Below, one piece after another: positions 1 to 42,139 of a DNA stretch of 42,139 bases. The stretch's first letter is position 1; each line of letters begins with the position of its first letter. Source of the DNA: Chiloscyllium plagiosum (taxonomy: Eukaryota); contig NC_057755.1 in the NCBI RefSeq assembly GCF_004010195.1, positions 10,847,497 to 10,889,635 on the forward strand, in the 5' to 3' direction. The position numbers and the translations under genes are program-made. Below the pieces are notes generated by a model, which did not search any database, had not been told where the DNA came from, and saw only the letters and a program-made list of their open reading frames with translations.

Positions 1-112
1 GCACACTGTATTCCAAATGTGGCTTCACCAAGGTCCTGTACAGTTCCAACATCACCTCTCATATCTTATAATCTCAGGTAATGACAACTCTAAACAGATC
101 GATTCGAAAATA

Positions 113-330
113 TAACAAAGAAATGAGGATGCTGAAGATCTGAAGCAAAAGCAGAAATTGGTAAAGAAACACAGGAGATCTGGCAGTCCTCGTGGATAGA
201 GAAAGCAGAGTTCATGTTTCACAGATTGTACAGATTGACTTCTGTAGAAGGTACACGAGATGTTGACTCTGCTTTCTCTCCACATTTGCTGCCAGACCTA
301 CAGAGTTTCTCCAGTAATTTATGTTTCTGA
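113..330. mobile_element. Palindromic (hairpin) Penelope-LTR-derived non-autonomous element, degenerate
   Basis: Arms 151-220 (CAGAAATTGG...AGAGAAAGCAGAGTTCATGTTTC) and 257-323 (GAGATGTTGACTCTGCTTTCTCTCC...CAGTAATTTATG) are imperfect reverse complements; copies near 24424, 27074 and 29891. Confidence 0.7.
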
Positions 331-818
331 TAACCAGGAGAGCTATCAGTGCTGTAAATACATTGACTCAGGCTGATGAGGTATCGGTGCACCGAGATGA
401 GGCGTGATTGTACTAAACACAATCATGCAAACTACAATCAGAGTGGATAAAATGGGGAGCTTGCCAAAAGCACAGCAGGTCAAGCAGCATCAGAGGAGCA
501 CGAGAGTTGAAATGTGGTCCTGACTGAAACATTGACCCTCCAGTTCCTCTGATGCTTCCTCACCTCTTGTGTTATATCCACTTTACTGAAAATGACTTTC
601 TAGCATCTGGAGTGCTCACTATCTCCAAACGACAATCCGACACCCTCTTGCACATGATACAATAAATCAAACACCGGAGTTAACTCAGGTCAATTGACGT
701 TCAGAAAATTAAATGATACGAGTGATGCGGTATCTGCATAAAGGTTTGTACGCAGTGTCAGTCCCACAGTAAAAACAGGGGCAGCATACTTACACAGTTT
801 CTGTGTAAACCCACGTAC

Positions 819-885
819 CTGGAACACCAATAACAGCCAGGATCACATAACATATTCTGTTGGCAACCCGAATTATTCCATGCAT
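819..885 (-). CDS. Exon 1 of a second GPR139-like GPCR copy (exon 2 would lie left of the window)
   Basis: Reads MHGIIRVANRICYVILAVIGVP+G followed by donor CAG|GTACGT; differs by 2 nt from 25129-25195. Confidence 0.85.
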
Positions 886-1170
886 TTTCCGAATGCACTA
901 CTCTACTTCGATGAACAATCTAACTAAATTCAGCTCCAGAGTTAATGAAGCCCATTATCTATACTCTCTGGGAATGTCCACAGGGATATGAGGATTGCAA
1001 CATTTTCAAAGAGTTCTATTTTACAATTTGGGAAAAACAAGTCTGTGTCAAAATACGGTTGCGATAGAATATGTTGTAATGGTGATACTGAGCTGTTAAA
1101 TAATAAAACTGGATAATTTACATGAATTAATGTTTTGTTGATGTTGTAGAAGTATACAATACGTTAGAAC

Positions 1171-1982
1171 TCATGGAATACTGGGAGAACTAGCCATTTG
1201 GATACAGAACTGGCTCAAAGGTAGAAGACAGAGGGTGGTGGTGGAGGGTTGTTTTTCAGACTGGAGGCCTGTGACCAGTAGAGTGCCACAAGGATCGGTG
1301 CTGGGCCCTCTATCATAATTCCATGAAAGTAGAGTCGCATGGTAATAGGATAGTGAAGAAGGCATTTGGTATGTTTTCCTTTCTCAGTCAGGGTATTGAG
1401 TACAAGAGTTGGGAGGGCATTGGCTAGGCCACTGTTGGAATATTGCATGCAATTCTGGTCTCCTTCCTATTGGAAAAATGCTGTGAAACTTGAAAGGTTT
1501 CAGAAAAGATTTACAAGGATGTTGCCAGGGTTGGTGGATATGAGCTACAGGGAGAGGCTGAACAGGCTGGGGCTGTTTTCACTGGAGTATCGAAGGCTGA
1601 GGGGTGACCTTATAGAGGTTTACAAAATTATGAGGGGCATAGATAGGATTAATAGGCAACGTCTTTTCCCTGGGGTGTCGGGAAGTCCAGAACTAGAGGG
1701 CATAGATTTAGGGTGAGAGGAGAAAGATATAAAAGAGACCTAAGGGGCAAATCTTTCACATAGAGGGTGGTACGTCTATGGAATGAGCTGCCAGAGAAAG
1801 TGGTTGACGCTGCTACAATTGCAACATTTAACAGGCATTTGGATGGGTATATGAATAGGAAGGGTTTGGAGAAATATGGGCTGGGTGCTGGCAGGTGTGA
1901 CTAGATTGGGTTGGGATATCCGATCGGCATGGACGGGTTGTACTGAAGGGTCTGTTTCCATGCTGTACATCTCTACGACTCT
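1171..1982 (+). mobile_element. CR1-type LINE 3' fragment with internal deletions
   Basis: RPLLEYCMQFWSP...RRLRGDLIEVYKIMRG C-terminal ORF2 motifs; 3' tail CTCTACGACTCTA. Confidence 0.92.
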
Positions 1983-5175: not shown

Positions 5176-6541
5176 GGAGGGGTGATAGACTACATTCTTG
5201 GATCTGTCTATCCCCTTCTGGAGAAAAACTATAACATAGAAAAAAAAATGCATATCTACCTTTACTGAATATCTAATTGCACTGAAATAAGATTTACTTC
5301 AGAATCTATGAGCTGAAAGCACTTTGTACTTCAGCTCTCTGTGCAGTTGTTAATACTTCCTGCTTGATAGAATTTACACCTGCTGATTAGCTTCCTCACG
5401 CAGTTAGTTAGATTTATCTGAGTGATTATTCTATGTTCATTGTGAGATCTCAGAATCTGAACCAACCTGCCATTGCTTTAAACGTTTAAAATGCTAAAAT
5501 AGATTTTAAGTCTTGATGTGAGATCTGTTCTCCGGAGAGATCCCCCTTTCACTATATTCCTGACTTGGCACTCAGTTAAGTAAAGTACCCTGTTCTCAAA
5601 GCACTATCCTTCTGAGCTCTGTGTGATGGCAAATGCTGTTTTGAGACAAGATAAAAAAATTTGGAGAAGGTTGTTTGATTTTGGAACTTCCTGCATCAGA
5701 CAATGGTTAACGCAGGTTCATTGAATAATGCTGATGGTAGATTCCAATTTGATAAGGCATTGAAGGTCATCTGGAGTAGACAGCAATGTGGAACATAAAC
5801 AAATCAAACATGATTTTATTGAATAATGAAGCATGATCTACTTCAGCTTTTAATTTGGATTTTAAAATCAGTCATTTCATTATTTTCCAAGATATATTCC
5901 CCTGACACACTGCTGAAAATCAGATATTGGCCATTTGTTCCTTTTTGTTCAAAAGTGTCTGTAGAAATGCTTGCTATCTGTTGTTATATTTTCAGTGATA
6001 TGTTTCTCTGTACTCAAGTTCCCCTTCCTTCTACATAATTTTGTCTATCCAACTTTTTATTTACTATCTATTCTTCCATTATGCCTACTCTTTTTTCATT
6101 CTTCCCATTTCTTTAATCCATGTTTTCAAAGTTTCACTTCCTCAGTTAACTTTAATGTAGTTCCCTTGCAACCTTTTTGATCTCAATAAAATGTACTTCT
6201 GCTGAGCATTCAGAAATATCTTCTTCAATGTCAGACACTGCCTCTACTAACTTGACACAAAACCTGATTTCCAAATTCTCTTTGTTCTTCGCCCTCACAA
6301 TCGCCCCAATAAAGCTGAAATCACCATCCTTAGATCCACTCAACTCCCCATCAAACCTAATGCAAAACCTTGTTGTGATCACTGTTACCTAAGGCTGACT
6401 ACAAGATCATGTCATGAACAATCCTGTGTTTTTGTATAATTGCAGGTCTGCTATTGTCTGCTTTCTTGTAAACTCTAGATATCGAACTCCTTGAAAATGT
6501 TCCCGAAACATGCCAGAAACGATCATCTAAACTATTTCAAA

Positions 6542-6701
6542 ATACATGGGAATATCGCCATCGAAACTGGAATCATGCTGATTTTGTTGAGCTTCAGAAT
6601 CTGTGAGCTGAAAGCTCACATTTATTTCTGCTGCAACACAGGGTAAGTTCAGAGAGGAGCTGAAGATGGTGCTGAAATCTCAGTGGTTACTGATTTTATG
6701 A
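6542..6701 (+). pseudogene. Remnant of a GPR139-like GPCR (TM7 and helix 8)
   Basis: IHGNIAIETGIMLILLSF, frameshift, then TFISAATQGKFREELKMVLKSQWLLIL*; aligns by eye with EHVGVMLVNLSCCTNAFIYGVTQSKFRQQIK of the intact gene. Confidence 0.75.
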
Positions 6702-7737
6702 ATCATTTAAAGCCAAAACAAACGCAAAGTAGTCTCTGTTGGAATACTGAATCTCAGTTTTGGTTCAATTACTCATTTGGACTTGAGCATAATTGTCTTT
6801 AACCTGTATGAGAAATGGGGAAGGGTGTTGTTTTATGCAGATGTAGCAAAAAGGGCAGTGATAATAAGCTTAAGCACAGCGATGACAAACAAGTATTGAG
6901 AGCAGCTGCAGGCAAAGATCAGATTAGCAAACTTCGGGAAAAACAAGTATTTGCGGGCAGAAAAGCAGAACAACAGAAAATACAAGCACAGCAAGTGTTA
7001 ATATAGTTACAAAACGGTTGCAGCTAACGGCCCAAAGAGAGAGAAGGAGTTGTAGAAAAATAAAAATCAGGGAAACACAGCTTGATAACACCAGTTTGTA
7101 CATAGACCCCACGATTTGTTTTCTGTTGATTCCTTCCAACTCTTTTCTGATGATGCAAGGTTGTAGTACACCAACTCTCAGTCTTTCATTCATCAGTTGA
7201 GAATTTGCCCTTCAGTGTTTCCCAAGGTGGTTTTCCCTTTTCCCTTTGAAAAAGCATTTTGCAGAGAGAGCAGCTGAAAAGTGAAGGAGAGTAACTCACT
7301 GTTAGCGATTTTCTTTTGCTTCTGAACATGAAGAGAAAAAGAGATGGATGTTTTCTCTTTGCAGGCTAGACATTACTGCTGTATTGTGTACATACAAAGC
7401 TGTAGCCACCTGCCTCGAAACCAGTCAAATAATTATTATTATCCTGAGCTCTCCTGATCCCACAATAACCAGTGCCAATTGAAAAGTGAGTCAAGAGATT
7501 GTCTCCAGACAGAACTGCTCTGAACACCTACAGAGAGTGCTGATCTGTTTGGAATTCTTCCTTACTGTTTGAATAGGGCAATGTTGTTTATAAAGTACTC
7601 TCAATGTGTTCCAGCAAATTTGTTTTTAAAACTTTAAACAACATCTTACGCAGTTTAAAGAAGTATCTTTTCCATTTTTGGTTCATAGTCTAAAAATGTT
7701 GTCTCTTAACAACTATTAGCCCAGCAACCGAATTGTC

Positions 7738-10811: not shown

Positions 10812-11044
10812 TTCCTGCGAGCCTGGTCCTTGACCTTGAGAATTTTTTTAAAACAACCTTGCACTCCAGTTTTTAGCCAAGTCAAGCGTATAACTGGCCT
10901 CAATCCTGCAGCCATTCTGCCTCAATCACTCTAGCCTTGGCTGAATGAATCTCCTATTCCTCTCACATTCGGATCAGACAGAATTCCGCAGTCCAGCTTC
11001 ACCAGAGATGAGCATATGTCCCTCATTTTCCACCTCTCCCTGAA

Positions 11045-13165
11045 ATCAGTGCCTGTCACTCACTGTACCCCCATCCCCAGGGTCAGTGTGTGGGTCTCTC
11101 ATTTCTACCACCTTGACGGTCAGCATATGTGTCTCTCACAATCGCCCCATCCCCAACGTCAGTGTGTGTATTTCTCATTTCCCACATCCCAGGGTCAGTG
11201 TGCGTATCTCTCACTTACCCCCACCCCCAGGATCAGTGTGGTGTGTGTATATGTGTCTCTCTCTCATTTCCCCCCACCCCCCCAGGGTCAGTGTGTGTAT
11301 CTCTCACTTTGCCCCACTCCCAGAGTCAGTGTGCGTGTGTCTCATTTCCCCCACCACAGGGTCAGAGTGTCTCTCATTTCCCTCCACCGCCAGGGTCAAT
11401 GTGTGTGTCTCTCCTTGTCCCCAACCCCAGGGACAATGTGTGTCTCTCTCATTCCCCACATCCTCAGGGTCAGTGTCCCTCATTTCCCCTCACCGCCAGA
11501 GTCAGTGTGTGTGTCTCTCATTCCCCACAGCCCCAGTGTCTGTGTTTGTGTGTCTCTCATTGTCCCCATCCCCAGAGTCAGTGTGTGTGTGTGTCTCATT
11601 CCCCACATCCCCAGGGTCAGTGTTTGTGTGTCTCTCATTATCCCCATCCCCAGGGTCAGTGTGTATATTGCTCATTCTCCCCACCCCCAGGGTCAGTGTG
11701 TGCATTTCTCATTCTCCCCACCCCCAGGGTATCTCTCACTTCCACCATCACCGAGATCAGGGTGTTTGTCTTTCATTGCCCCCATCCGCAGGATGCGTGT
11801 GTGTGTCTCTCATTCTTCCCAGCCCCAGGGTCATTGCGTGTGTGTCTCATTTTCCCACATCCCCAAGGTCAGTGTGTGTCTCTCTCATTTACCCCCACCC
11901 CCAGGGTCAGTGTGCATGTTTCTCATTTCCACCCACCCCTAGGATCAGTGTGTCTGTCTCTCTCATTTCCCTGCCACCCTCAGAGTCAGTGTGTGTCTCT
12001 CTCATTTCCCCCACCCCGGGATCAGTGTGTGTCTCTCTCATTTCCCCCCACCCTGGGGTTAGTGTCTGTGACTCTCATTTCCCCTATACCTGAGGTCAGT
12101 GTGTATGTCTCCCATTTCCCTCCATCCCCAGGGTCAGTTGTGTCTCTCATTTCCCCTCACCCTCAGGGTCAGTGTCTATATCTTTCATTACCCCTATCGC
12201 TGAGGTCAGTGTGTGTCTCTCTCAATTCCCCCCATTCCCAGGGTCAGTGTCTGTGTCTCTCATTTCCCCCTATCCCCAGGGTCAGTGTCTGTGTCTCTTA
12301 TTTCCCCCTATCCCCAGGGTCAGTGTGTGTGTGTGTCTCTCATTTCCCCCCTATCCCCAGGGTCAGTATCTGTGTCTCTCATTTCCCCCTATCCCCAGGG
12401 TCAGTGTCTGTGTCTCTCATTTCCCCCTATCCCCAGGGTCAGTGTGTGTGTGTGTCTCTCATTTCCCCCNNNNNNNNNNNNNNNNNNNNNNNNNNNNNNN
12501 NNNNNNNNNNNNNNNNNNNNNNNNNNNNNNNNNNNNNNNNNNNNNNNNNNNNNNNNNNNNNNNNNNNNNNNNNNNNNNNNNNNNNNNNNNNNNNNNNNNN
12601 NNNNNNNNNNNNNNNNNNNNNNNNNNNNNNNNNNNNNNNNNNNNNNNNNNNNNNNNNNNNNNNNNNNNNNNNNNNNNNNNNNNNNNNNNNNNNNNNNNNN
12701 NNNNNNNNNNNNNNNNNNNNNNNNNNNNNNNNNNNNNNNNNNNNNNNNNNNNNNNNNNNNNNNNNNNNNNNNNNNNNNNNNNNNNNNNNNNNNNNNNNNN
12801 NNNNNNNNNNNNNNNNNNNNNNNNNNNNNNNNNNNNNNNNNNNNNNNNNNNNNNNNNNNNNNNNNNNNNNNNNNNNNNNNNNNNNNNNNNNNNNNNNNNN
12901 NNNNNNNNNNNNNNNNNNNNNNNNNNNNNNNNNNNNNNNNNNNNNNNNNNNNNNNNNNNNNNNNNNNNNNNNNNNNNNNNNNNNNNNNNNNNNNNNNNNN
13001 NNNNNNNNNNNNNNNNNNNNNNNNNNNNNNNNNNNNNNNNNNNNNNNNNNNNNNNNNNNNNNNNNNNNNNNNNNNNNNNTCTATGTCTCTCATTTCCCCC
13101 CACCCTTAGGGTCAGTGTGTGTCTCTCATTCCCTCCACCCCCCCGGGGTCAGTGTGTGTCTCCCT
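11045..13165. repeat. Minisatellite with a ~38-42 bp unit (CCCCAGGGTCAGTGTGTGTGTCTCTCATTTCCCCC...), spanning a gap
   Basis: Dozens of tandem units, more homogeneous toward the gap; explains the long spurious ORFs. Confidence 0.95.
12470..13079. other. Assembly gap (others at 16277-16754, 20047-20546, 27329-28240)
   Basis: N runs. Confidence 1.
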
Positions 13166-19997: not shown

Positions 19998-20994
19998 ATG
20001 TTCTGTCCCAGGAGTTGAGGAATAGGGAGAGAGAACAGTTAAATGCNNNNNNNNNNNNNNNNNNNNNNNNNNNNNNNNNNNNNNNNNNNNNNNNNNNNNN
20101 NNNNNNNNNNNNNNNNNNNNNNNNNNNNNNNNNNNNNNNNNNNNNNNNNNNNNNNNNNNNNNNNNNNNNNNNNNNNNNNNNNNNNNNNNNNNNNNNNNNN
20201 NNNNNNNNNNNNNNNNNNNNNNNNNNNNNNNNNNNNNNNNNNNNNNNNNNNNNNNNNNNNNNNNNNNNNNNNNNNNNNNNNNNNNNNNNNNNNNNNNNNN
20301 NNNNNNNNNNNNNNNNNNNNNNNNNNNNNNNNNNNNNNNNNNNNNNNNNNNNNNNNNNNNNNNNNNNNNNNNNNNNNNNNNNNNNNNNNNNNNNNNNNNN
20401 NNNNNNNNNNNNNNNNNNNNNNNNNNNNNNNNNNNNNNNNNNNNNNNNNNNNNNNNNNNNNNNNNNNNNNNNNNNNNNNNNNNNNNNNNNNNNNNNNNNN
20501 NNNNNNNNNNNNNNNNNNNNNNNNNNNNNNNNNNNNNNNNNNNNNNGCAACTGTACTGTATTGAATTAAATTAATGTTAGATTTGATAATCATGGTGAGT
20601 TTAACATACTCATCTTTCATTGCAGTTAACTATAAATTTCCAGAAGCTCTTTTGTATGGATTTCTGTTTCTATTTCTTGAATTGACAGCAAGGATGTGGG
20701 AATAGAACGAGAAAAGTTCCAGATTTTAATTTTCCAGATCTGTTTATTTCAAGGTCTCCGAAAAATCCACAATTCATTTCAAACTCCGAATGAATTTTGA
20801 ATAAAATATCAACAGTGTGTCAAAATATAGAGTATTATTCTTTTCTGAACTTGACATAACTGCATAATATGTGGTGGGATTAGCTTTTCAAATCATCTTT
20901 CAGATCCTCAGTTGCAAAGTGGCGTGTTGTTGAAGTTGAGAAAGTTTCAAATGGAAGTCTCATTGAGTAGTGGTCACCTATTTTACGAATTATA

Positions 20995-21221
20995 AAAGCA
21001 AATTACTGCAGATGCTGGAATCTGAAACCAAAAGAGAAAATGTTGGAAAATCTTAGCAGGTCTGGCGACATCTGGAAGGAGCGAAAAGAGCTGACGTTTC
21101 GAGTCTGACCTTTTGTCAAAGCTGTGACACAGAGTCAGTTAGACTCGAAACGTCAGCTCTTTTCTCTCCTTACACATTCTGCCAGACCTGCTGAGATTTT
21201 CTAGCATTTTCTCTTTTGGTT
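20995..21221. mobile_element. Palindromic Penelope-LTR-derived element (MITE-like)
   Basis: Inverted arms spanning 21026-21221, including a perfect pair GAAAAGAGCTGACGTTTCGAGTCT / AGACTCGAAACGTCAGCTCTTTTC. Confidence 0.8.
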
Positions 21222-21379
21222 ACTATTTATAAACTTTGTTCAATCTGTTAATCTGGAAACTGTTACTTCAACTCCACTTGCAAAATTAGATCTAGGTCCT
21301 TTCACCCTTGTGTTACTTTGTACTTTGGCTGAGAGAGCTCTCCTGGTTACTTGCAAAGAAGTTTACCTCCTCTAAGCTA

Positions 21380-21630
21380 TAAGACCACAAGACCATAGGA
21401 ATAGAAATTAGGCCATTTGGCCCATCGCTGACAGGTTTTTTTCCCCCTGTCCCCCATGACCCTTGATCCCTTCGGCAATCAAGAACTATCTCCGTCTTAA
21501 ATGCATTCAACGACCCGGTCTCCACAGCTCTCTACAGCAATGAATTCCACATATTCACCACTCTCTGACTAAAGACATTTGCTCTTATATCCAATCTAAT
21601 GGGTCTTCCCTTTACTCTAAGGCTGTACAC
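21380..21630 (-). mobile_element. LINE 3' tail fragment
   Basis: ATAAGACCACAAGACCATAGGA tail; similar to 2335-2580. Confidence 0.7.
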
Positions 21631-21739
21631 GTCCCAGTAGCACCTAATTCAGCCACTCCTCCAACTAGCCAATGGAGACAGTTACTAATTTCAAGTTAAT
21701 ATACTAAAGCACCATCCATTATTTGGGACAAACGTTTGG

Positions 21740-22635
21740 TTAATTACGATGTCGATTTATGTAAAAAGCACATTTCAGTGCTTCCTTGATCTGCTGTCTA
21801 AATTTGGATTGTGTCACCCCATAAATAAACGCATTTGTGCAGCAACTTAAATTCACCAACATGACTCCAACATGTTCAAATAGGAGTAAAGAATGATCAC
21901 CATCTGTGGGACCAGTTCCATGAATAAAGTTATAAATGAAATTTATCACGTATATGGACCACAGAATTACAAAGCTGCCAGAAATCGTAAAGAGTAAAAT
22001 TATAGACCTCCTCCGACTCTCCATCTCTGGGTCACTGCGATTCACTCCCTTGCTCTGTTCCCTCAATCCCTTCCGGACTCGACTGGCCACTATAATGTGT
22101 CTGACTGTCAGAGCGTTGAGCAGCAGAATGAGAACAAATGGTAGTAATGGATTAAAAACTGTGAGGAACCATTTAAATCCCATCCAGCTGGGCTCACTAT
22201 AGTAGCTCGGCTTTGAAACACAGAGCCATGGAAGATTATAAAGTAGTGTATAAGGTTTAAATCTAAAGTAGAAAGGAACATGTATTAAACAGATCAGGAT
22301 ACAGGTTGTTGATAGAATTACAACTGCATTTCTCTTTGTGCAATATTTAAGTTTCAGTCTCCGGCAGCAGATAATAACAAATCGATCAAAGCTGAAAGTG
22401 ACCGTAAACCAAATGGAGCAGGATATGGCTGCTGTTGACAAGACATAGATTATACTGCACACGGGAGTCAAATCCAAGAAAGATAATGGGAAATAATAGG
22501 TATTGATGTGCCTCAGTACAACCTCAGTGATGAGAACCATCAGATCCGATGCTGCCATGGCCATCAGATAGCAGGTGGTGCAGGAGGATAGGCCACACCT
22601 TCCCTGAGACAGGATCATGAGCACCACTAAATTAA
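21740..22635 (-). CDS. Exon 2 of a class A GPCR, GPR139/GPR142-like (shark-type family)
   Basis: Pyrimidine tract plus CTGCAG acceptor at 22636; TM1 N, TM2 AMAASDL, TM3 SFDRF, TM6 FVILW, TM7 TNAFIY, helix 8 KFR; no internal stops. Confidence 0.95.
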
Positions 22636-22959
22636 CTGCAGGGGAGAGAAGAGAACATGTTTGATCCTGGATTCACTTTGCTACCAAAAAAAGGCTTTAA
22701 ATTGTTTAAGTATCACATTTATGATTTTTATTCATCTCGGACATACCTATTCCCAGGTCTAATGAGCCAAGAGTTTATGGGTTAAGCCATAGTTCACTTC
22801 CTGCTTAATAGGTTTGAATGATATTCCCAACCTCAAATGTAACTAGTCACACACCACCATCTTATAGTCCAACAGGTTTCTTTGAAATCACAACCTTTCT
22901 GAACACTGCCCCTTTGTCCCTTCACCTGATGAAGGAACAGCCCTTGGCCACTTTAAGAC

Positions 22960-23205
22960 TAAGATGGGGAGGAATTTCTTCTCTCAGAATGGTGTGAGTC
23001 TTTGGTTATCCTTACTGAAGAGAGCTGGGGTGGGGTGGGGGCAGAGTCCTTGTGTGTATTTAAGGCTGAGACAGATAGATTCTCGATCAGCCAGTGTTTG
23101 TGATAAGAGCAGGAAAGTGAGGAATGTCGGATCATCCATGATCCTATTGAAAGACACAGTAGGCTCGAGGGGCCGAATGCCCTACTCATGTTCCTATTCC
23201 TTTTG
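22960..23205 (+). mobile_element. LINE 3' tail fragment in the GPCR intron
   Basis: GGAATTTCTTCTCTCAGA...GGCTCGAGGGGCCGAATG 3' UTR motif. Confidence 0.7.
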
Positions 23206-23520
23206 ATCTTAAGACATGAATTTTCAATCAGAGATTCCACCTCCCCTGATGCCTTCCACTCATTTCCCACTGGCAAATGGGACTAGATTAATTTAGAATA
23301 TCTGGTTAGCAGGGACAAGATGGACTGAAGGGTCATTTTCTGCGCTGTTCATCTCTAAGACTCTATGACCTCGAGCTATTTATTTGTAAATCTTTTACAA
23401 TGAAGGGAAATACACAGAGAGCCAGGAATGTGATTTTACCAAAAATAGTATGTACTTATAAATAAACAGAAACTCACAACTTGTCAGGTAGCATCAGTTG
23501 GGAAAGAAGCTGAGTGAAGC

Positions 23521-24125
23521 TTAGGAATAAAAGAATGACTAGGGTAGGAATAGGTCCAGTCAAGGATAGTAGTGGGAAGTTGCGTGTGGAGGCGGAAGAG
23601 ATTGGGGAGACACTGAATGAATACTTTTCTTCAGTATTTACTCAGGAACTGGGCATTGTCGTCGATGTGAATACTGAGTCACAAATAAGTAGAATGGATA
23701 GCTTTGAGGTATGTAGAGAAGAGGTGTTGGAAATCCTGGAAAAGGTGAAAATAGATAAGTCCCCTGGGCCTGATGGCATTTATCCTAGGATTCTCTGGGA
23801 AGCAAGGGAGGAGATTGCAGAGCCATTGGCCTTGATTTTTATGTCCTCTTTGTCTACAGGAGTAGGCCCAGAAGACTGGAGGATAGCAAATGTGGTTCCC
23901 TTGTTCAAAAAGGGGAGTAGGGATAACCCTAGTAACTATAGGCCGGTGAGTCTCACTTCTGTTGTGGGCAAAGTCTTAGAGAGAATTGTAAGGGATAGGA
24001 TTTATGCACATCTGGATAGGAATAATGTGATCAAGGATAGTCAGCAAGGTTTTGTGAAGGGCAAGTCGTGCCTCACAAACCTTATTGAATTCTTTGAAAA
24101 GGTGACGAAGGAGGATGATGAGGGG
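23521..24125 (+). mobile_element. Young CR1 LINE insertion, 5' part (probable 3' end at 25666-25898)
   Basis: Open frame KSPGPDGIYPRIL...NYRPVSLTS...SCLTNLIEFF; the empty site GAGTGAAGC|TGTCAGG is seen at about 28450-28465. Confidence 0.9.
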
Positions 24126-25665
24126 CTTCTCGCTCAGCCTTCTCTGCTCCAAACGAAACAACCTGAGATTATTCAGCCTCTCTCCATCTCTGAATCCATC
24201 TCGTGGGGAGTGGGGGGGAGGGGGGGCAACATTCTAATGAATCGCTTCTGCACCCAACCCCCACAACCCCCCCTAAAATCCCATGCTTCCTATAGTGTGG
24301 GGACCAGAACTGCACACTGTATTCCAAATGTGGCTTCACCAAGGTCCTGTACAGTTCCAACATCACCTCTCATATCTTATAATCTCAGGTAATGACAACT
24401 CTAAACAGATCGATTCGAAAATATAACAAAGAAATGAGGATGCTGAAGATCTGAAGCAAAAGCAGAAATTGGTGGAGAAACACAGGAGGTCTGGCAGTAC
24501 CTGCGGAAAGAGAAAGCAGAGTTCATGTTTCACAGGTTGTACATATTTCTTCTGAAGAAGGTACACGAGATGTTGACTCTGCTTTCTCTCCACATTTGCT
24601 GCCAGACCTACAGAGTTTCTCCAGTAATTTATGTTTCTGATAACCAGGAGAGCTATCAGTGCTGTAAATACATTGACTCAGGCTGATGAGGTATCGGTGC
24701 TTCGAGATGAGGCGTGATTGTACTAAACACAATCATGCAAACTACAATCAGAGTGGGTAAAATGGGGAGCTTACAAAAGCACAGCAGGTCAAGCAGCATC
24801 AGAGGAGCACGAGGGTTGAAATGTGGTCCTGACTGAAACATTGACCCTCCAGTTCCTCTGATGCTTCCTCACCTGTTGTGTTATATCCACTTTACTGAAC
24901 ATGACTTTCTAGCATCTGTAGTGCTCATTATCTCCAAATGACAATCCGAAACCCTCTTGCACATGATGCAGTAAATCAAAACACCGGAGTTAACTCAGGT
25001 CAATTGACGTTCAGAAAATTAAATGATACGAGTGATGTGGTATCTGCATAAAGGTTTGTACGCAGTGTCAGTCCCACAGTAAAAACAGGGGCAGCATACT
25101 TACACAGTTTCTGTGTAAACCCACGTACCTGGAACACCAATGACAGCCAGGACCACATAACATATTCTGTTGGCAACCCGAATTATTCCATGCATTTTCC
25201 AAATGCACTACTCTGCCTCGATGAACAATCTAACTAAATTCAGCTCCAGAGTTAATGAAGCCCATTATCTATACTCTCTGGGAATGTCCACAGGGATATG
25301 AGGATTGCAAAATTTTCAAAGAGTTCTATTTTACAATTTGGGAAAAACAAATTTGTGTCAAAAAATATTTGCGATAGAGTATGTTGTAATGGTGATACTG
25401 AGTTGTTAAATAATAAAACTGGATAATTTACATGAATTAATGTTTTGTTGATGTTGTAGAAGTATACAGTAAGTTAGATCTCATGGAATACTGGAGAACT
25501 AGCCATTTGGATACAGAACTGGCTCAAAGGTAGAAGACAGAGGGTGGTGGTGGAGGGTTGTTTTTCAGACTGGAGGCCTGTGACCAGTAGAGTGCCACAA
25601 GGATCGGTGCTGGGCCCTCTACTTTTTGTCATTTACATAAATGATTTGGATGCGAGCATAAGAGG
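24126..25665. repeat. Duplicated block containing GPCR exon 1
   Basis: Matches 1-1311 and, apart from a deletion there, 29593-30613. Confidence 0.9.
25129..25195 (-). CDS. Exon 1 of the GPR139-like GPCR
   Basis: MHGIIRVANRICYVVLAVIGVP+G with donor GTACGT; phase-1 join gives ...IGVPVNLVVLMIL; 67+896=963 nt, 320 aa. Confidence 0.88.
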
Positions 25666-25899
25666 TCACTATATAGGACTGAAGTTAGGGGTAGGTTCTT
25701 CACTCAGCGAGTCGTAAGTTCATGGAATGCCCTGCCAGTAGCAGTGGTGGACTCTCCCTCTTTATGGGCATTTAAGCGGGCATTCGATAGGTATATGGAG
25801 GAGAGTGGGTTAGTATAGGTTAGGTGGGCTTGGATCGGCGCAACATCGAGGGTCAAAGGGCCTGTACTGCGCTGTATTCTTCTATGTTCTATGTTCTAA

Positions 25900-27328
25900 A
25901 CTGTCAGGTTGATAACATTTGTGTTTGACTTGGTTCACATCAAATTCTACTGAAAGATTAATGAGGTGGATAAGCGAAAAAAACGGGTTAGTGGAAATGA
26001 AAGTGCCTTAATGAAGAACAGAGAGTCCTCTGGGTCACTGCCAGTTGGAGCAGGAAAGCCACAGGGACCCCAGGACTATGGTGCAGCCAATTAGTCACGT
26101 TACAAAGTGGCATCTTCAACTCCAGTGATAAATCCCACCTCTTCATTCCCTGTCAAAGTCAGAGGGTAAAACGTGCCAATACTTTGCTGATCTTTGGTAA
26201 GGTGGTCAGTCCAACTGCATTGAAGGGCAAGAACAGATGGGGAGGGAGTCACAGCAACTCTCTCAGAGAGCGAGAGAGGGAGTGGGGGGCAAAGAGAGAG
26301 AGAGAGAGAGAGAGAGACACGTGCCAATACTTTGCTGATCTTTGGTAAGGTGGTCAGTCCAACTGCATTGAAGGGCAAGAACAGATGGGGAGGGAGTCAC
26401 AGCAACTCTCTCAGAGAGCGAGAGAGGGAGTGGGGGGCAAAGAGAGAGAGAGAGAGAGAGAGAGACGGGTCATTTAAGGTCACCTGAATCGATTGGATGA
26501 AGCTTTCATCAAAGTTGTGACTGAATCCATGACTGAGAACATGAACTTGTGCAGGCGAGTTTCCTGATTGAAACTCATCTCAGCTTTAAAGAGTCATTCC
26601 TCCTCTCTGAGGCTGTACCCTCAGGTTCTTGTCTCTGCTACTGGTGAAACCATCTTCTCCACTTTCACTCTATCCAGGTCTCTCAGTATTCTGTAAATTT
26701 CAATCAGATTCCCCATCCCCTCCACCAATCCTTCTAAACTCCATTGGTGTCCTCATATCCCCAGAATGGGATACACTTCTCGCTCAGCCTTCTCTGCTCC
26801 AAACGAAACAACCTGAGATTATTCAGCCTCTCTCCATCTCTGAATCCATCCCGTGGGGAGTGGGGGGGAGGGGGGGCAACATTCTAATGAATCGCTTCTG
26901 CACCCAACCCCCACAACCCCCCCCTAAAATCCCATGCTTCCTATAGTGTGGGGACCAGAACTGCACACTGTATTCCAAATGTGGCTTCACCAAGGTCCTG
27001 TACAGTTCCAACATCACCTCTCATATCTTATAATCTCAGGTAATGACAACTCTAAACAGATCGATTCGAAAATATAACAAAGAAATGAGGATGCTGAAGA
27101 TCTGAAGCAAAAGCAGAAATTGGTGAAGAAACACAGGAGGTCTGGCAGTACCCGCGGACAGAGAAGGCAGAGTTCATGTTTCACAGGTTGTACAGATTGA
27201 CTTCTGAAGAAGGTACACGAGATGATGACTCTGCTTTCGCTCCACATTTGCTGCCAGACCTACAGAGTTTCTCCAGTAATTTATGTTTCTGATAACCAGG
27301 AGAGCTATCAGTGCTGTAAATACATTGA
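25900..27328. repeat. Duplicated intron-type block
   Basis: Matches 28458-30145, except for a local ~150-bp duplication here and a ~420-bp extra segment there. Confidence 0.9.
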
Positions 27329-28240: not shown

Positions 28241-31200
28241 TGGTTAGCAGGGACAAGATGGACTGAAGGGTCAGTTTCTGCACTGTTCATCTCTATGACT
28301 CTATAACCTCGAGCTATTTATTTGTAAATCCTTTACAATGAAGGGAAATACTCAGAGAGCCAGGAATGTGATTTTACCAAAAATAGTATGTGCTTATAAA
28401 TAAACAGAAACTCACAACTTGTCAGGTAGCATCAGTTGGGAAAGAAGCTGAGTGAAGCTGTCAGGTTGATAACATTTGTGTTTGACTTGGTTCACATCAA
28501 ATTCTACTGAAAGATTAATGAGGTGGATAAGCGAAAAAACGGGTTAGTGGAAATGAAAGTGCCTTAATGAAGAACAGAGAGTTCTCTGGGTCACTGCCAG
28601 TTGGAGCAGGAAAGCCACAGGGACGCCAGGGCAATGGTGCAGCCCATTAGTCACACTACAAAGTGGCATCTTCAACTCCAGTGATAAATCCCATCTCTTC
28701 ATTCCCTGTCAAAGTCAGAGGGTAAAACGTGCCGATACTTTGCTGATCTTTGGTAAGGTGGTCAGTCCAACTGCATTGAAGGGTAAGAACAGATGGGGAG
28801 GGAGTCACAACAGCTCTCTCAGAGAGCGAGAGAGGGAGTGTGGGGCAAAGAGAGAGAGAGAGACGGGTCATTTAAGGTCACCTGAATCGATTGGATGAAG
28901 CTTTCATCAAAGTTGTGACTGAATCCAAATTGGGAGTGTGCAAGGAAACAGACCCTGAGCAGGCATCTCCGACACTGAAGTGAACAGAGTGCAGGTGGAT
29001 CTCTGTTTAATCTGGATGTCCAATTTGTGCGGGGGAGGGGGCGAATGGGGCAGGAGAACATGATGTGGTGGGGCAATGAAGCCGGTGAAAACACATCCAG
29101 TGTCGCATCACCTCTCCTGAATGCCGCGCCCCACCCCCAAAACCACACCAAATTATTTCAGGGTGCTTCTGGAGGAAGGATAACACACCAGAGCTGATAG
29201 GATGGGGAGGAAAGCGTTTGGTCTAAAGTCATAATGAGGATGTTGAATGAGAAGAGAGAGGAAGGCAGAATCAAGGAGTGACACCAGAATCAATTTCCTG
29301 AATTTCACTAAAAGACAGGGCAGTAGGAGTAAGGAAATAACGAGAATGTTTGAGAACATGAACTTGTGCAGGCGAGTTTCCTGATTGAAACTCATCTCAG
29401 CTTTAAAGAGTCATTCCTCCTCTCTGAGGCTGTACCCTCAGGTTCTTGTCTCTGCTACTGGTGAAACCATCTTCTCCAATTCCACTCTATCCAGGTCTCT
29501 CAGTATTCTGTAAATTTCAATCAGATTCCCCATCCCCTCCACCAATCCTTCTAAACTCCATTGGTGTCCTCATATCCCCAGAATGGGATACACTTCTCGC
29601 TCAGCCTTCTCTGCTCCAAACGAAACAACCTGAGATTAATCAGCCTCTCTCCATCTCTGAATCCATCCCGTGGGGAGTGGGGGGGAGGGGGGGCAACATT
29701 CTAATGAATCGCTTCTGCACCCAACCCCCACAACCCCCCCCTAAAATCCCATGCTTCCTATAGTGTGGGGACCAGAACTGCACACTGTATTCCAAATGTG
29801 GCTTCACCAAGGTCCTGTACAGTTCCAACATCACCTCTCATATCTTATAATCTCAGGTAATGACAACTCTAAACAGATCGATTCGAAAATATAACAAAGA
29901 AATGAGGATGCTGAAGATCTGAAGCAAAAGCAGAAATTGGTGAAGAAACACAGGAGGTCTGGCAGTACCCGCGGACAGAGAAGGCAGAGTTCATGTTTCA
30001 CAGGTTGTACAGATTGACTTCTGAAGAAGGTACACGAGATGATGACTCTGCTTTCGCTCCACATTTGCTGCCAGACCTACAGAGTTTCTCCAGTAATTTA
30101 TGTTTCTGATAACCAGGAGAGCTATCAGTGCTGTAAATACATTGATTCCAAATGCACTACTCTGCCTCGATGAACAATCTAACTAAATTCAGCTCCAGAA
30201 TTAATGAAGCCCATTATCTATACTCTCTGGGAATGTCCACAGGGATATGAGGATTGCAACATTTTCAAAGAGTTCTATATTACAATTTGGGAAAAACAAA
30301 TCTGTGTCAAAAAATATTTGCGATAGAGTATGTTGTAATGGTGATACTGAGTTGTTAAATAATAAAACTGGATAATTTACATGAATTAATGTTTTGTTGA
30401 TGTTGTAGAAGTATACAATACGTTAGATCTCATGGAATACTGGAGAACTCGCCATTTGGATACAGAACTGGCTCAAAGGTAGAAGACAGAGGGTGGTGGT
30501 GGAGGGTTGTTTTTCAGACTGGAGGCCTGTGACCAGTAGAGTGCCACAAGGATCGGTGCTGGGCCCTCTACTTTTTGTCATTTACATAAATGATTTGGAT
30601 GCGAGCATAAGAGGAACAGTTAGTAAGTTTGCAGATGGCACCAAATTTGAGGTGTAGTAGACAGCGAAGAGGGTTACCTCAGGTTACAACAGGATCTTGA
30701 CTGGATGGGCCAATGGGCTGAGAAGTGGCAGATGGAGTTTAATTCAGATAAATGCGTGGTGCTGCATCTTGGGAAAACAAATCTTAGCAGGACTTATACA
30801 CTTAATGGTAAGGTCCGAGCGAGTGTTGCTGAGCAAAGAGACCTTGGAGTGCAGGTTCATAGCTCCTTGAAAGTGGAGTCACGGGTAGAAAGGATATCGA
30901 AGAAGGAGTTTGATATGCTTTCCTTTATTGGTCAGAGTATTGAGTACAGGAGTTGGGAGGTATGTTGCGGCTGTATAGGGCATTGGCTAGGCCACTGTTG
31001 GAATATTGCATGCAATTCTGGTCTCCTTCCTATTGGAAAAATGCTGTGAAACTTGAAAGGTTTCAGAAAAGATTTACAAGGATGTTGCCAGGGTTGGTGG
31101 ATATGAGCTACAGGGAGAGGCTGAACAGGCTGGGGCTGTTTTCACTGGAGTATCGAAGGCTGAGGGGTGACCTTATAGAGGTTTACAAAATTATGAGGGG

Positions 31201-34315: not shown

Positions 34316-35110
34316 AGCAGTGTACTGTTGGAAGGTCAGTACAAGGGAGCGCCACACTGTCGAGGGGCAGTACTGAGGGCGCATGGCACTGTTGGAGCGT
34401 CAGTAGTAAGGGACTGCCGCACTGGCAGAGGGTCAGTACTGAGGGAGTGCTGCACTGTCAGAGGGTCAGTACTGAGGTAGTGCTGCATTGTCAAAGGGTA
34501 GGTACTGAGGATGCGCTGCACTATCAGGGGGTCAATACTGAGGGAATGCTGCACTGTCGGAGGGTCAGTACTGAGGGAGTGCTGCACTGACAGAGGGTCA
34601 GTACGGAGGGTGCGCTGCACTGTCAGAGGGTCAGTACTGACGGAGTGCAGCACTGTCAGAGGGTCAGTACTGAGGGTGTGCTGCACTGTCAGAGTGTTAG
34701 TACTGAGGGTGTGCTGCACTGTCAGATGGTGAGTACTGAGGGTGTGCTGCACTGTCAGAGGGTCAGAACTGAGGGTGTGCTGCACAGTCAGAGGGTCAGA
34801 ACTGAGGGATTGCCACACTGTCAGAGGTTCACTACTGAGGGAGTGCCGCACCGTCAGAGGGTCAGTACTGAGGGAGTGCCGTACTGTCAGAGGGTCAGTA
34901 CTGAGAGAGTGTCGCACTGTCAGAGGGTCAGTACTGAGGGAGTGTCGCACTGTCAGAGGGTCAGTACTGCGGGAGTGCAGTCCTCTTGGAGGGTCATTAC
35001 TGCGTGAGTGCTGTCCTGTCTGAGGGTCAGTGCTGCCGGTGTGCTGTCCTGTCAGTGAGTGAGTACTGCGGAGTGCTGTCCTGTCAGAGGGTCAGTTCTG
35101 AGGGAGTGAT
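34316..35110. repeat. 33-bp minisatellite, about 23-24 units
   Basis: Unit GAGGGTCAGTACTGAGGGAGTGCTGCACTGTCA. Confidence 0.95.
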
Positions 35111-35289: not shown

Positions 35290-36890
35290 ATAATACTGAC
35301 TGAGACAGGGACACTGTATTTAATTCACGGACTCAGTAAAACTGACTGGGACAGGGACACAGTATTTAATTCACTGTCTCAGTAATACTGACTGGGACAG
35401 GGATACAGTATTTAATTCACTGTCTCAGTAATACTGACTGGGACAGGGACAGAGTATTTAATTCACTATCTCAGTAATACTGACTGGGACAGGGACACTG
35501 TATTCAATTCACTGACTCAGTAATACTGACTGGGATAGGGACACTATTTAATTCACTGACTCAGTAATACTGACTGGGACAGGGACACTGTATTTAATTC
35601 ACTGACTCAGTAATACTGACTGGGACAGGGACACTGTATTTAATTCACTGACTCAGCAATACTGACTGGGGCAGGGACACTGTATTCAATTCACTGACTC
35701 AGTAATACTGACTGGGACAGGGACACAGTATTTAGTTCACTGTCTCAGTAATACTGACTGGGACAGGGACACAGTATTTTATTCACTGACTCAGTAATAC
35801 TGACTGGGACAGGGACACTGTTTCTAATTCACTGACTCAGCAATATTGACTGGGGCAGGGACACTGTATTCAATTCACTGACTCAGTAATACTGACTGGG
35901 ATAGGGACACTGTATTTAATTCACTGACTCAGTAATACTGACTGGGACAGGGACACTGTATTTAGTTCACTGACTCAGTAATACTGACTGGGACAGGGAC
36001 ACTGTATCTAATTCACTGACTCATCAATACTGACTGGGGCAGGGACACTATTCAATTCACTGACTCAGTAATACTGACTGGGACAGGGACACAGTATTTA
36101 ATTCACTGACTCAGTAAAACTGACTGGGACAGGGACACAATATTTAATTCACTGTCTCAGTAATACTGACTTAGACAGGTATACAGTATTTAATTCACTG
36201 TCTCAGTAATACTGACTGGGACAGGGACAGAGTATTTAATTCACTGTCTCAGTAATACTGACTGGGACAGGGACACTGTATTCAATTCACTGACTCAGTA
36301 ATGCTGACTGGGATAGGGACACTGTATTTAATTCACTGACTCAGTAATACTGACTGGGACAGGGACACTGTATTTAATTCACTGACTCAGTAATATTGAC
36401 TGGGACAGGGACACAGTATTTAGTTCACTGTCTCAGTAATACTGACTGGGACAGGGACACAGTATTTAGTTTACTGACTCAGTAATACTGACTGGGACAG
36501 GGACACTGTATCTAATTCACTGACTCAGCAATACTGACTGGGGCAGGGACACTGTATTCAATTCACTGTCTCATTAATACTGACTGGGACAGGGACACAG
36601 TATTTAATTCACTGACTCAGTAATACTGACTGCGACAGGGACACTGTATTTAATTCACTGACTCAGCAATACTGACTGGGACAGGGGCACAGTATTTATT
36701 TCACTGTCTCAGTAATACTGACTGGGACAGGGACACAGTATTTATTTCACTGTCTCAGTAATACTGACTGGGACAGGGACACAGTATTTAGTTCACTGAC
36801 TTAGTAATACTGACTGGGACAGGGACACAGTATTTAGTTCACTGCCTCAGAAATACTCACTGGGACAGGGACACAGTATTCAATTCACTG
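35290..36890. repeat. 46-bp minisatellite, about 35 units
   Basis: Unit ACTGACTGGGACAGGGACACTGTATTTAATTCACTGACTCAGTAAT. Confidence 0.97.
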
Positions 36891-37431: not shown

Positions 37432-37596
37432 CCTATATTGGGGGCCAATGTGTAACTTTAAACCTGATACTGTGTGTCTTGTGGGGAAGGAGATTAAAAG
37501 TTTCAGAACAAATGCAGCAAAATAAACCAGAAATATTGATCAGCTTTGAACTGACTAACGTGTACACTTGCGATTTAAGGCTGAATGGGACACACT

Positions 37597-38030
37597 GGAA
37601 AGGGGCTGAATGGCCTGTTCCTGTTCATGTGGACAGGCTGGAGCAGGGGGCAAAATGGCCTGTTCTTGTTCATGTGGACAGGCTGGAGAAGGGGCTGAAT
37701 GGCCTGTTCCTGTTCATATGGACAGGCTGGAGAAGAGGCTGAATGGCCTGTTCCTGTTCCTGTGGGACAGGCTAGAGCAAGGGGCTTAATGGCCTGTTCC
37801 TGTGAGACAGGCTGGAGCAGGGGAATGAATGGCCTGTTTCTGTACAACAGGCTGCAAAAGGGAGCTAAATGGCAGGTTCTTGTGGGACAGGCTGGAGAAA
37901 GGGCTGAATGGCCTGTTCCAGTGGGAAAGGGTGGAGAAGGGGCTGAAATGCTTGTTCCTGTGGGACAGGATGGAGAAAGGGCTGAATGGCCTTGTCCTGT
38001 GGGACAGTACGGAGAAGGGGCTGAATGGAT
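37597..38030. repeat. ~39-45 bp minisatellite, about 11 units
   Basis: Unit GGGGCTGAATGGCCTGTTCCTGTGGGACAGGCTGGAGAA and variants. Confidence 0.9.
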
Positions 38031-39240: not shown

Positions 39241-39782
39241 GATAGACACACAGACCTCAGTACGTACCAAGGAACACACTTTTCAGTCTGTAGACAGACA
39301 CACAGTCCTCAGTACGTACCAAGAAATGCACCATTCAGTTTGTAGATAGACACACAGCCCTGAGTGCATACCAACGAACACACTGTTCAGCCTGTAGATA
39401 GACACGCATCACTCAGTATGTGCCAAGGAACACACTGTTCAGCCTGTAGATAGACACACAGCCCTGAGTGCATACCAAGGAACACACTGTTCAACCTGCA
39501 GATAGACACACAATCCTGAGTGCATACCAAGGAACACACTGTTCAGCCTGTAAATGGATGCACAGCCCTCAGTGTGTACAAAGGATCACAATGTTCAGCC
39601 TGTAGATTGAAACGCAGCCCTCAGTGTGCACTAAGGAACAGACCCGTTCAGCCTGTACATAGACACACAACCCTCAATATGTACCAAGGAACACACTATT
39701 CAGCTTGCAGAGAGACACACAGACCTCAGTACTGACCAAGAAACACACCGTTCAGCCTGTACATAGACACACAGCCCTCAGA
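39241..39782. repeat. 52-bp minisatellite, about 10 units
   Basis: Unit GATAGACACACAGCCCTCAGTGCGTACCAAGGAACACACTGTTCAGCCTGTA. Confidence 0.9.
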
Positions 39783-40299: not shown

Positions 40300-42139
40300 A
40301 ATGTTCAAGAATGTAGGGAGGCTGTGGAGAAGGCACTGACAGGGAATACTTGCGGACACAGAGATGGGTTTAAGTGCGTATACTCCAACGCAAGGAGTAT
40401 CAGAAATAAAGTGGGTGAACTTAAGGCGTGGATTGGTACTTGGGACTATGATGTTGTGGCCATCACGGAAACGTGGATAGAAGAGGGACAGGAATGGTTG
40501 TTGGAGGTTCCTGGTTACAGATGTTTCAGTAAGATTAGGGAGGGTGGTAAAAAAGGAGGGGGATGGCGTTGCTAATTAGAAATGGTATAACGGCTGCAGA
40601 AAGGCAGTTCGAGGGGGATCTGCCTTTGGAGGTAGTATGGGCTGAAATCACAAAAACGAAAGGAGCAGTCACCTCATTGGGTGTTTACTATAGGCCCCCC
40701 AATAGCAACAGGGATGTAGAGAAACAGATTGGGAAACAGATTTTGGAAAGGTGCAGAAGCCACAGTAGTAGTCATGGGAGATTTCAACTTCCCAAATATT
40801 GATTGGAAGCTTTTTAGATCAAGTAGATTGGACGGGGCGGTGTTTGTGCAGTGTGTCCAGGAAGCTTTTCTAACTCAGTATGTAGATTGCCCGACCAGAG
40901 GGGAGGCCATATTGGATTTGGTACTTGGTAACGAACCGGGACAAGTGATGGGCTTGTTAGTGGGTGAACATTTTGGTGATGGTGACCACAATTCTGTGAT
41001 TTTCACCTTGGTTATGGAGAGAGATAAGTGCGTGCAACAGGGTAGGGTTTGTGATTGGGGGAAGGGTAAGTCCGATGATGCAAGACAAGATCTGAGGAGC
41101 ATAAGTTGGGAGCATAGGCTATCAGGGAAGGATGTCGTCGAAATGTGGAACTTTTTCAAGGAACAGATACGACGTGTCCTTGATATGTATGTACCTGTCA
41201 GGCAGGAAAGAAATGGTCGTGTGAGGGAACCTTGGTTGACGAGGGAGGTTGAATGTCTTGTAAAGAGGAAGAAGGAGGCTTACATAAGGTTGAGAAAACA
41301 AGGTTCAGACAGAGCTTTGAAGGGATACAGGATAGCCAGGAGGGAGCTGAAGAAAGGGATTAGGAGGGAGCTAAGAGAGGGCATGGAAGATCTTTGGCGG
41401 GTAGGATCAAGGATAACCCCAAGGCCTTTTATGCGTATGTGAGAAACTTGAGAATGATGAGAATCAAGGATCGTAGTGGGAGATTGTGCATTGAGTCGGA
41501 AGAGATAGGAGAGTACTTGAATGAGTACTTTTCTTCAATATTTACAAATGAGAGGGACCGTATTGTTGAAGAGGAGAGTATGAAACAAACTGGTAAGCTA
41601 AAGGAGATACTTGTTAGGAAGGAAGATGTGTTGGGCATTTTGAAAAACTTGAGGATAGACAAGTCCCCCGGGCCTGACGGGATATATCCTAGGATTATGT
41701 GGGAAGCAAGAGAGGAAATTGCAGAGCCGTTGGCAATGATCTTTTCGTCTTCACTGTCAACGGGGGTGGTACCAGGCAACTGGAGAGTGGCGAATGTTGT
41801 GCCCCTGTTCAAAAAAGGGAATAGGGATAACCCCAGGAATTACAGACCAGTTAGTTTTACTTCGGTGGTAGACAAAGTAACGGAAAGGGTACTGAGGGAT
41901 AGGATTTATGAGTATCTGGAAAGACACTGCTTGATTAGGGACAGCCAGCACGGATTTGTGAGGGGTAGGTCTTGCCTTACAAGACTTATTGAATTCTTTG
42001 AGGAGGTGACCAAAAATGTGGATGAGGGTAGAGCAGTGGATGTAGTATACATGGATTTTAGTAAGGCATTTGATAAGGTTCCCCATGGTAGGCTTATGCA
42101 GAAAGTCAGGAGGCATGGGATAGAGGGAAATTTGCCCAA
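40300..42139 (+). mobile_element. CR1 LINE ORF2 (APE endonuclease to RT start), frameshifted, running off the window
   Basis: NARSIRNK, VAITETW, YRPP, GDFNFPNIDW, DHN, KSPGPDG, NYRPVS, DFSKAFDKV. Confidence 0.95.

Follow-up and report, generated by a model that had tools for sequence, protein, structure and literature searches.

What is encoded by the small two-exon gene on the minus strand of a 42,139-nucleotide stretch of the Chiloscyllium plagiosum genome (assembly GCF_004010195.1, contig NC_057755.1, positions 10,847,497 to 10,889,635; hereafter the window, with positions counted from its first nucleotide), and is it the shark counterpart of GPR139, whose name its database relatives bear? 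As judged by sequence identity, motifs and nesting in phylogenetic trees, the gene is a member of a very large chondrichthyan family annotated as 'probable GPR139', and it is one ordinary member among many. The paralogs of this family differ most at the predicted ligand pocket, and the family may well constitute a repertoire of chemical-sensing receptors.

Exon 1 (67 nt, 25195-25129, minus strand) begins with an ATG, encodes the start codon and the first half of transmembrane helix (TM) 1, and ends at a phase-1 GT donor. Exon 2 (896 nt, 22635-21740, minus strand) is preceded by a pyrimidine tract and an AG, and its open reading frame (ORF) covers the remainder of TM1 through TM7, helix 8 and the stop codon. 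Joined across a single repeat-rich GT-AG intron of 2493 bp (22636..25128, minus strand, phase 1), the two exons give 963 nt that encode a 320-residue protein, here called the window protein, and its stop codon. An in-frame stop lies five codons 5' of the exon-1 ATG, and both exons are located within one gap-free stretch (20547-27328). The window protein displays seven hydrophobic stretches by hydropathy and matches Pfam 7tm_1 with 80.4 bits against a cut-off of 30.5 (E 2e-22); it is a class A (rhodopsin-like) G-protein-coupled receptor (GPCR). A structure model computed from 44 sequences shows long helices at low confidence (predicted local distance difference test, pLDDT, 54; predicted template modelling score, pTM, 0.26), and was used neither for a fold search nor for the definition of the pocket.

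The pairing of the two exons is supported by homology, since the same N-terminus precedes the same body in five zebra-shark proteins: their first 22 residues are nearly identical to those of the window protein and their bodies are 78-80% identical to it. The spacing from the initial methionine to Asn1.50 is exactly that of the window protein in 40 of 120 relatives. On these comparisons the two-exon gene model is taken to be correct and intact, as had been proposed in an earlier reading made from the DNA letters alone (the sequence-only reading), which had described exon 1 as hidden; that term was too strong, given that NCBI models of relatives already include the exon.

A search with the exon-2 protein yielded 2140 candidates, 1528 of which reached E<=0.001. 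The best 120 of these 1528 matches are all from elasmobranchs, are 55-81% identical to the query and are nearly all named 'probable G-protein coupled receptor 139'. The horn shark contributes 69 of the best 120, a lower bound for the number per genome, with a mean identity of 77% over the core and no pair above 95%. When the family profile was searched against 50%-identity representatives, 131 were found at E<=1e-30; among 19 clade members whose names were checked, 18 proved to be chondrichthyan, with the chimaera Callorhinchus milii among their sources. Annotated full-length family proteins are present in at least 15 species, chimaera included, and the five zebra-shark proteins form one 90% cluster, three of them being encoded on one contig. 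These sequences indicate that a shark genome holds dozens of copies, where amphibians and sturgeon apparently have a single one, and they reveal a multitude of paralogs with birth-and-death turnover, as would be anticipated for a chemoreceptor repertoire.

The motifs that first set this protein apart are shared by the whole family. DRF occupies residues 106-108 and NAFIY residues 290-294 of the window protein, whose sequons are found only at 221 and 284 and never in the N-terminal segment; all three features had been read correctly from the DNA. The sequence-only reading took them as a sign of fast evolution, an argument that is rejected here, because DRF occurs in 116 of the 120 relatives, NTFIY or NAFIY in 113, and a short unglycosylated N-terminus is likewise a family norm: 21-26 residues precede Asn1.50 in 60 of the 120, with a sequon in only four of these 60. 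Many of the other 60 have N-termini that look mis-modelled. Several database models of family members carry N-terminal extensions derived from long interspersed nuclear elements (LINEs) and matching LINE fragments in the window, which suggests frequent errors in the modelling of exon 1. Of 121 sequences, that of the window protein agrees least with the family majority (68%, where the median is 84%), in a set chosen by similarity to the window protein itself, and its branch, although long, was flagged in neither of two trees, of 77 and 36 rows.

Human GPR139 is the best match of the window protein in the PDB (39.7 bits, E 4e-9), and a profile of the family scores it at 61.8 bits against 39.4 for the next receptor, a clear margin. 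By these sequence scores the window gene falls within the GPR139/GPR142/GPR210 group in a wide sense. The further proposal would make it the shark ortholog of GPR139, a receptor of the brain that responds to aromatic amino acids; it draws on that PDB match, on the 'probable GPR139' label of its relatives and on the two exons found in both genes, yet it is given next to no credence. The 39.7 bits contrast with the 70% identity between zebrafish and human GPR139 given in PMC7318219. The available portion of the same source lists E108, F109, H187, W241, R244 and N271 as the core residues binding Trp and Phe. Only one of these six, Trp6.48, is kept in the window protein; in the alignments Glu108, Phe109, His187, Arg244 and Asn271 are replaced by Ser89, Thr90, Leu180, Tyr251 and Val280, respectively. 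Moreover, dozens of paralogs in each genome are equally close, and it is a different bony-vertebrate gene that joins the family at a support of 100/99, true GPR139 lying outside these trees. Orthology was accordingly rejected on the low score and the lost binding residues. Human GPR139 itself lacks the NPxxY proline in the alignment.

The nearest bony-vertebrate relative among those sampled is a gene that amphibians, sturgeon and bichir apparently have in a single copy. In amphibians it is represented by 20 clusters, one per listed species, 66-74% identical to the newt protein, to which the sturgeon protein is 46% identical. The chondrichthyan family and this gene group together at 100/99, with amphioxus and two further bony-fish lineages falling outside, and the window protein is nested at 100/100 in a shark-and-ray subclade of the 36-row tree. 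A chondrichthyan group that excludes the amphibian-sturgeon-bichir gene obtained a Shimodaira-Hasegawa-like approximate likelihood ratio (SH-aLRT) of 97 when 77 rows were analysed in a quick mixture-model tree and 81/35 in the careful tree of 36 rows; some of the family duplications may, judging from these trees, predate the split from that gene. The trees contain neither true GPR139 nor true GPR142, which were absent among the listed matches of the protein searches; within that scope, the position among shark paralogs envisaged by the sequence-only reading was recovered. Word-index searches found no teleost or amniote ortholog of the amphibian-sturgeon-bichir gene, which is not proof of loss.

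The amphibian gene, present in Xenopus and axolotl, is an unstudied orphan. Its pocket is nearly invariant and basic: all 20 amphibian sequences have Arg2.61, Lys6.51, Lys6.55 and Arg7.35, a composition that hints at an acidic ligand. Databases give the label 'probable GPR139' to the two further bony-vertebrate lineages as well, though these are far from human GPR139 (70 bits for the coelacanth protein), and the label thus covers several distinct genes.

The variability of the family was compared across the receptor. TM2 to TM7 were numbered from conserved anchors, with TM1 excluded, and 32 positions, which we take to be the standard class A pocket, were set against the other positions. In 120 shark proteins the pocket shows 1.52 bits of variability, against 0.71 at 71 other outer-half TM positions (nominal p 5e-5) and 0.51 in the inner half. 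The 20 amphibian orthologs, of similar overall divergence, show the opposite: 0.11 at the pocket, 0.41 in the outer half and 0.50 in the inner half (p 0.001). The shark pattern was kept in 200 of 200 subsamples of 20 sequences, appears in the horn shark alone (1.36 against 0.60) and recurs at 10 site positions from the GPR139 literature under approximate numbering (p 0.012); it weakens when the position set is slid by one or two residues. Among the shark loops, the intracellular ones show 0.40-0.56 bits, extracellular loop (ECL) 2 shows 1.26 and ECL3 1.81. The 69 horn-shark paralogs bear 68 different pocket signatures. Pocket identity between the window protein and the zebra-shark cluster is 78%, against 56% for horn-shark paralog pairs of matched background identity, only 10 of 1216 of which reach 78%. 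With this position set and nominal p values, the pocket is variable among paralogs and conserved among orthologs, as expected of a chemoreceptor repertoire.

We favour, with about even credence, the reading that the family acts as a receptor repertoire for external chemicals, of which the window gene would be one tuned unit; the choice of external over internal sensing rests on analogy. The shared intracellular face would lead to one common G-protein pathway, Gq/11 if the family behaves like GPR139. The ligands, small molecules or short peptides, would differ between subfamilies and bind within the helix bundle, for which an N-terminal domain would not be needed, and the window's subfamily would keep a ligand of its own, because its pocket is retained in zebra shark. 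By analogy with the odorant-receptor families, the ligands are likely to be food, social or environmental cues read by sensory cells. Ancestry suggests amino-acid-like or short peptide ligands, the ancestor of the GPR139/GPR142 receptor group having probably been activated by peptides that end in aromatic residues, according to the available portion of PMC8557429.

Several observations weigh against this reading. The 32-position set was fixed after the per-position table was known, and sites and sequences are related, so that the p values are nominal; the variability of the pocket fits internal or immune sensors, or relaxed selection, as well. Four RNA runs of unknown tissue gave no depth over exon 1, and the splice joint of the gene was not among the 15 of 51 joints listed. 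Reads pile up inside the intron, where the depth derives from repeats. The few exon-2 reads in a single-cell raw-read run, about 2% of which was read, have one orientation and were taken as antisense from a comparison with the LINE in the intron and with a poly(A) end; these runs speak neither for nor against expression. In the account available from PMC7318219, the sites of action of GPR139 and GPR142 are brain, pancreas and gut, and not sense organs. In the catshark, no GPCR stands among the 50 most specific brain-and-nose genes in the portion of PMC11979771 available, a weak null, known olfactory receptors being likewise missing from the list at that cut-off.

The same pocket pattern would be expected of receptors that are diversified for ligands and look inwards. 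Such receptors would sense, in immune cells, gut or skin, peptides and metabolites that come from microbes, from food or from the body itself. The formyl-peptide and Mas-related receptor clusters of mammals are the model for such a system. Inward sensing also agrees with the aromatic-peptide ancestry of the group (PMC8557429, in part) and with the detection of Trp and Phe by GPR142 in pancreas and gut (PMC7318219, in part); on the other side, neither 'GPR139' nor 'receptor 139' occurs in four supplements of a bamboo-shark immune single-cell paper, an absence that carries little weight because genes there may bear locus ids only. We regard inward sensing as unlikely, yet as an explanation to be taken seriously. 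It is improbable, in turn, that the copies arose by repeat-driven duplication with little benefit, the pockets drifting under relaxed selection and many copies being redundant or silent. The wealth of repeats around the gene would suit such a process, as would the partial duplicates and the decayed remnant in the window, the little RNA signal in the four runs and the larger number of tandem genes that larger elasmobranch genomes hold in general (available portion of 10.1101/2025.06.08.657570). Drift, however, would be expected to strike intracellular loops and lipid-facing positions, here spared, along with the pocket, and it accounts poorly for a window-protein pocket retained in zebra shark and for full-length proteins annotated in so many species, down to the chimaera.

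A functional family could also contain a silent or mis-joined copy here, with exon 1 taken from another duplicate or with the locus being an assembly composite. Near-identical duplicates beside N gaps (26534-27328 and 29351-30145, 99.6% identical) and the unseen junction reads speak for this possibility, which is nevertheless held to be quite improbable, given the location of both exons on gap-free sequence, the canonical splice sites, the intact frame and the zebra-shark proteins with the same N-terminus on the same body. The interpretation of the sequence-only reading holds in its core, an expanded GPR139-related orphan that is distinct from GPR139, as the weak score, the single retained binding residue, the huge elasmobranch family and the tree all indicate; its motif argument does not hold, and it had missed the size of the family, the variability of the pocket and the separate bony-vertebrate kin gene.

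If the external-sensing reading is extended to its full consequence, cartilaginous fishes would have evolved a seventh vertebrate family of chemosensory GPCRs, multiplied from one GPR139/GPR210-type gene that stayed single and conserved in amphibians, sturgeon and bichir, and exceeding their known olfactory receptors combined; we hold this to be possible, if somewhat short of probable. Cartilaginous fishes are credited with 20-62 olfactory receptor genes per genome, and sharks and rays with the smallest chemoreceptor repertoire of vertebrates, in the available portion of PMC10869828. The available portion of PMC10116579 treats this paucity as real and explains it as sensitivity traded for discrimination. 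Were the proposal true, the accepted view that sharks combine a keen chemical sense with a very small number of receptors would be an artefact, produced by counts restricted to the six known families. A single shark with at least 69 distinct members that differ in their pockets makes the puzzle directly testable, and the conserved amphibian ortholog offers a handle on the ancestral ligand in Xenopus or axolotl. The proteins were already in databases under the borrowed GPR139 name, and their expansion is apparently undescribed: no paper describing it was found among open-licence papers and bioRxiv, nor the gene name in the supplementary files searched, and GPR139 is unmentioned in the available main text of PMC11979771, PMC8455134 and 10.1101/2025.06.08.657570.

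The surroundings of the gene record recent local duplication and decay. Window positions 1-1312 match 24312-25621 at 96.5% and hold the exon 1 of a second, recently duplicated copy (819..885, minus strand, recognized by sequence match), which has two base differences, one Val/Ile change and an intact donor; the exon 2 of that copy would be located outside the window, to the left of position 1. The sequence-only reading had the present gene right and overlooked this second exon 1 at 885-819. A partial duplicate of intron and upstream DNA (29780..30570, minus strand, sequence match) lacks 520 bp (24677-25196) that hold exon 1; the deletion, with its junction at 30145/30146, drops exon 1 and its ATG but spares the DNA upstream of them. 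In another duplicate, an N gap starts (27328) at precisely this left breakpoint, so that the assembly may have a branch point there. The two 795-bp copies at 26534-27328 and 29351-30145 flank the N gap and are possibly an assembly duplication; some of the duplicates near N gaps may be assembly artefacts. A decayed, frameshifted remnant of another family member, spanning TM7 to helix 8, lies in the opposite orientation (6554..6731, plus strand, E 2e-6); it is closer to another subfamily, and positions 5766-5975 bear a weak TM1-TM3-like trace that may be part of it.

A TATA-like element read from the sequence about 70 nt 5' of the ATG (25265..25273, minus strand) is a candidate core promoter. 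The intron contains a LINE reverse-transcriptase-like fragment (23514..24392, plus strand), recognized from its ORF and resembling 41464-42010, which we take, without library comparison, to be of the CR1 type. Minisatellite arrays are found at 11000-13160, 34334-35108, 35291-36890, 37586-38028 and 39241-39781, with periods of 38, 33, 46, 39 and 52/26 bp; the 26/52-bp array is located 14 kb upstream of the gene, away from its promoter, and no array was recorded from 25196 to 26171. An inverted repeat of about 200 bp (21026-21221, 85%) lies 3' of the stop codon and is abundant in transcripts, and is hence likely a common short mobile element.

A comparison with known receptor systems reveals both kinship and difference. 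L-Trp and L-Phe activate the class A orphans GPR139 and GPR142, which resemble the window gene in having two exons, no NPxxY proline and a retained Trp6.48, whereas the window protein has DRF in place of DRY, lacks Pro6.50 and is only weakly similar to them (39.7 bits). GPR139 is highly conserved between species, in contrast to the dozens of diverged copies per genome of the shark family. Beside GPR139 and GPR142, the available portion of PMC6504862 places GPR210A, GPR210B and a third, unnamed set of gar and coelacanth; similarly, three bony-vertebrate lineages stand beside the shark family in the present tree, and the sturgeon-bichir-amphibian lineage, for which no teleost match was obtained, is like that third set. 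The three sets may correspond to the three lineages. The words 'shark' and 'cartilaginous' are absent from the main text of that paper as far as available, and no expansion is described there.

Among invertebrates, a protostome expansion of RFamide/Wamide receptors is the sister group of GPR139/142 in the available portion of PMC8557429, and Srw-domain clusters are among the Atlas neighbours. The Srw domain occurs in 29 of 90 candidate chemoreceptors of Aplysia, and no srw gene has been experimentally shown to be chemosensory (PMC3963977). These RFamide/Wamide and Srw-type expansions are invertebrate and independent of the shark family. As to the vertebrate chemoreceptors, no profile membership was found for OR, TAAR, V1R, V2R, T1R or T2R, 7tm_1 being the only Pfam family of the window protein at E<=0.1. 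The shark family nevertheless shares with those six families short compact genes, clustering and birth and death. Odorant receptors combine a conserved inner face with a variable pocket, and the shark family displays the same combination.

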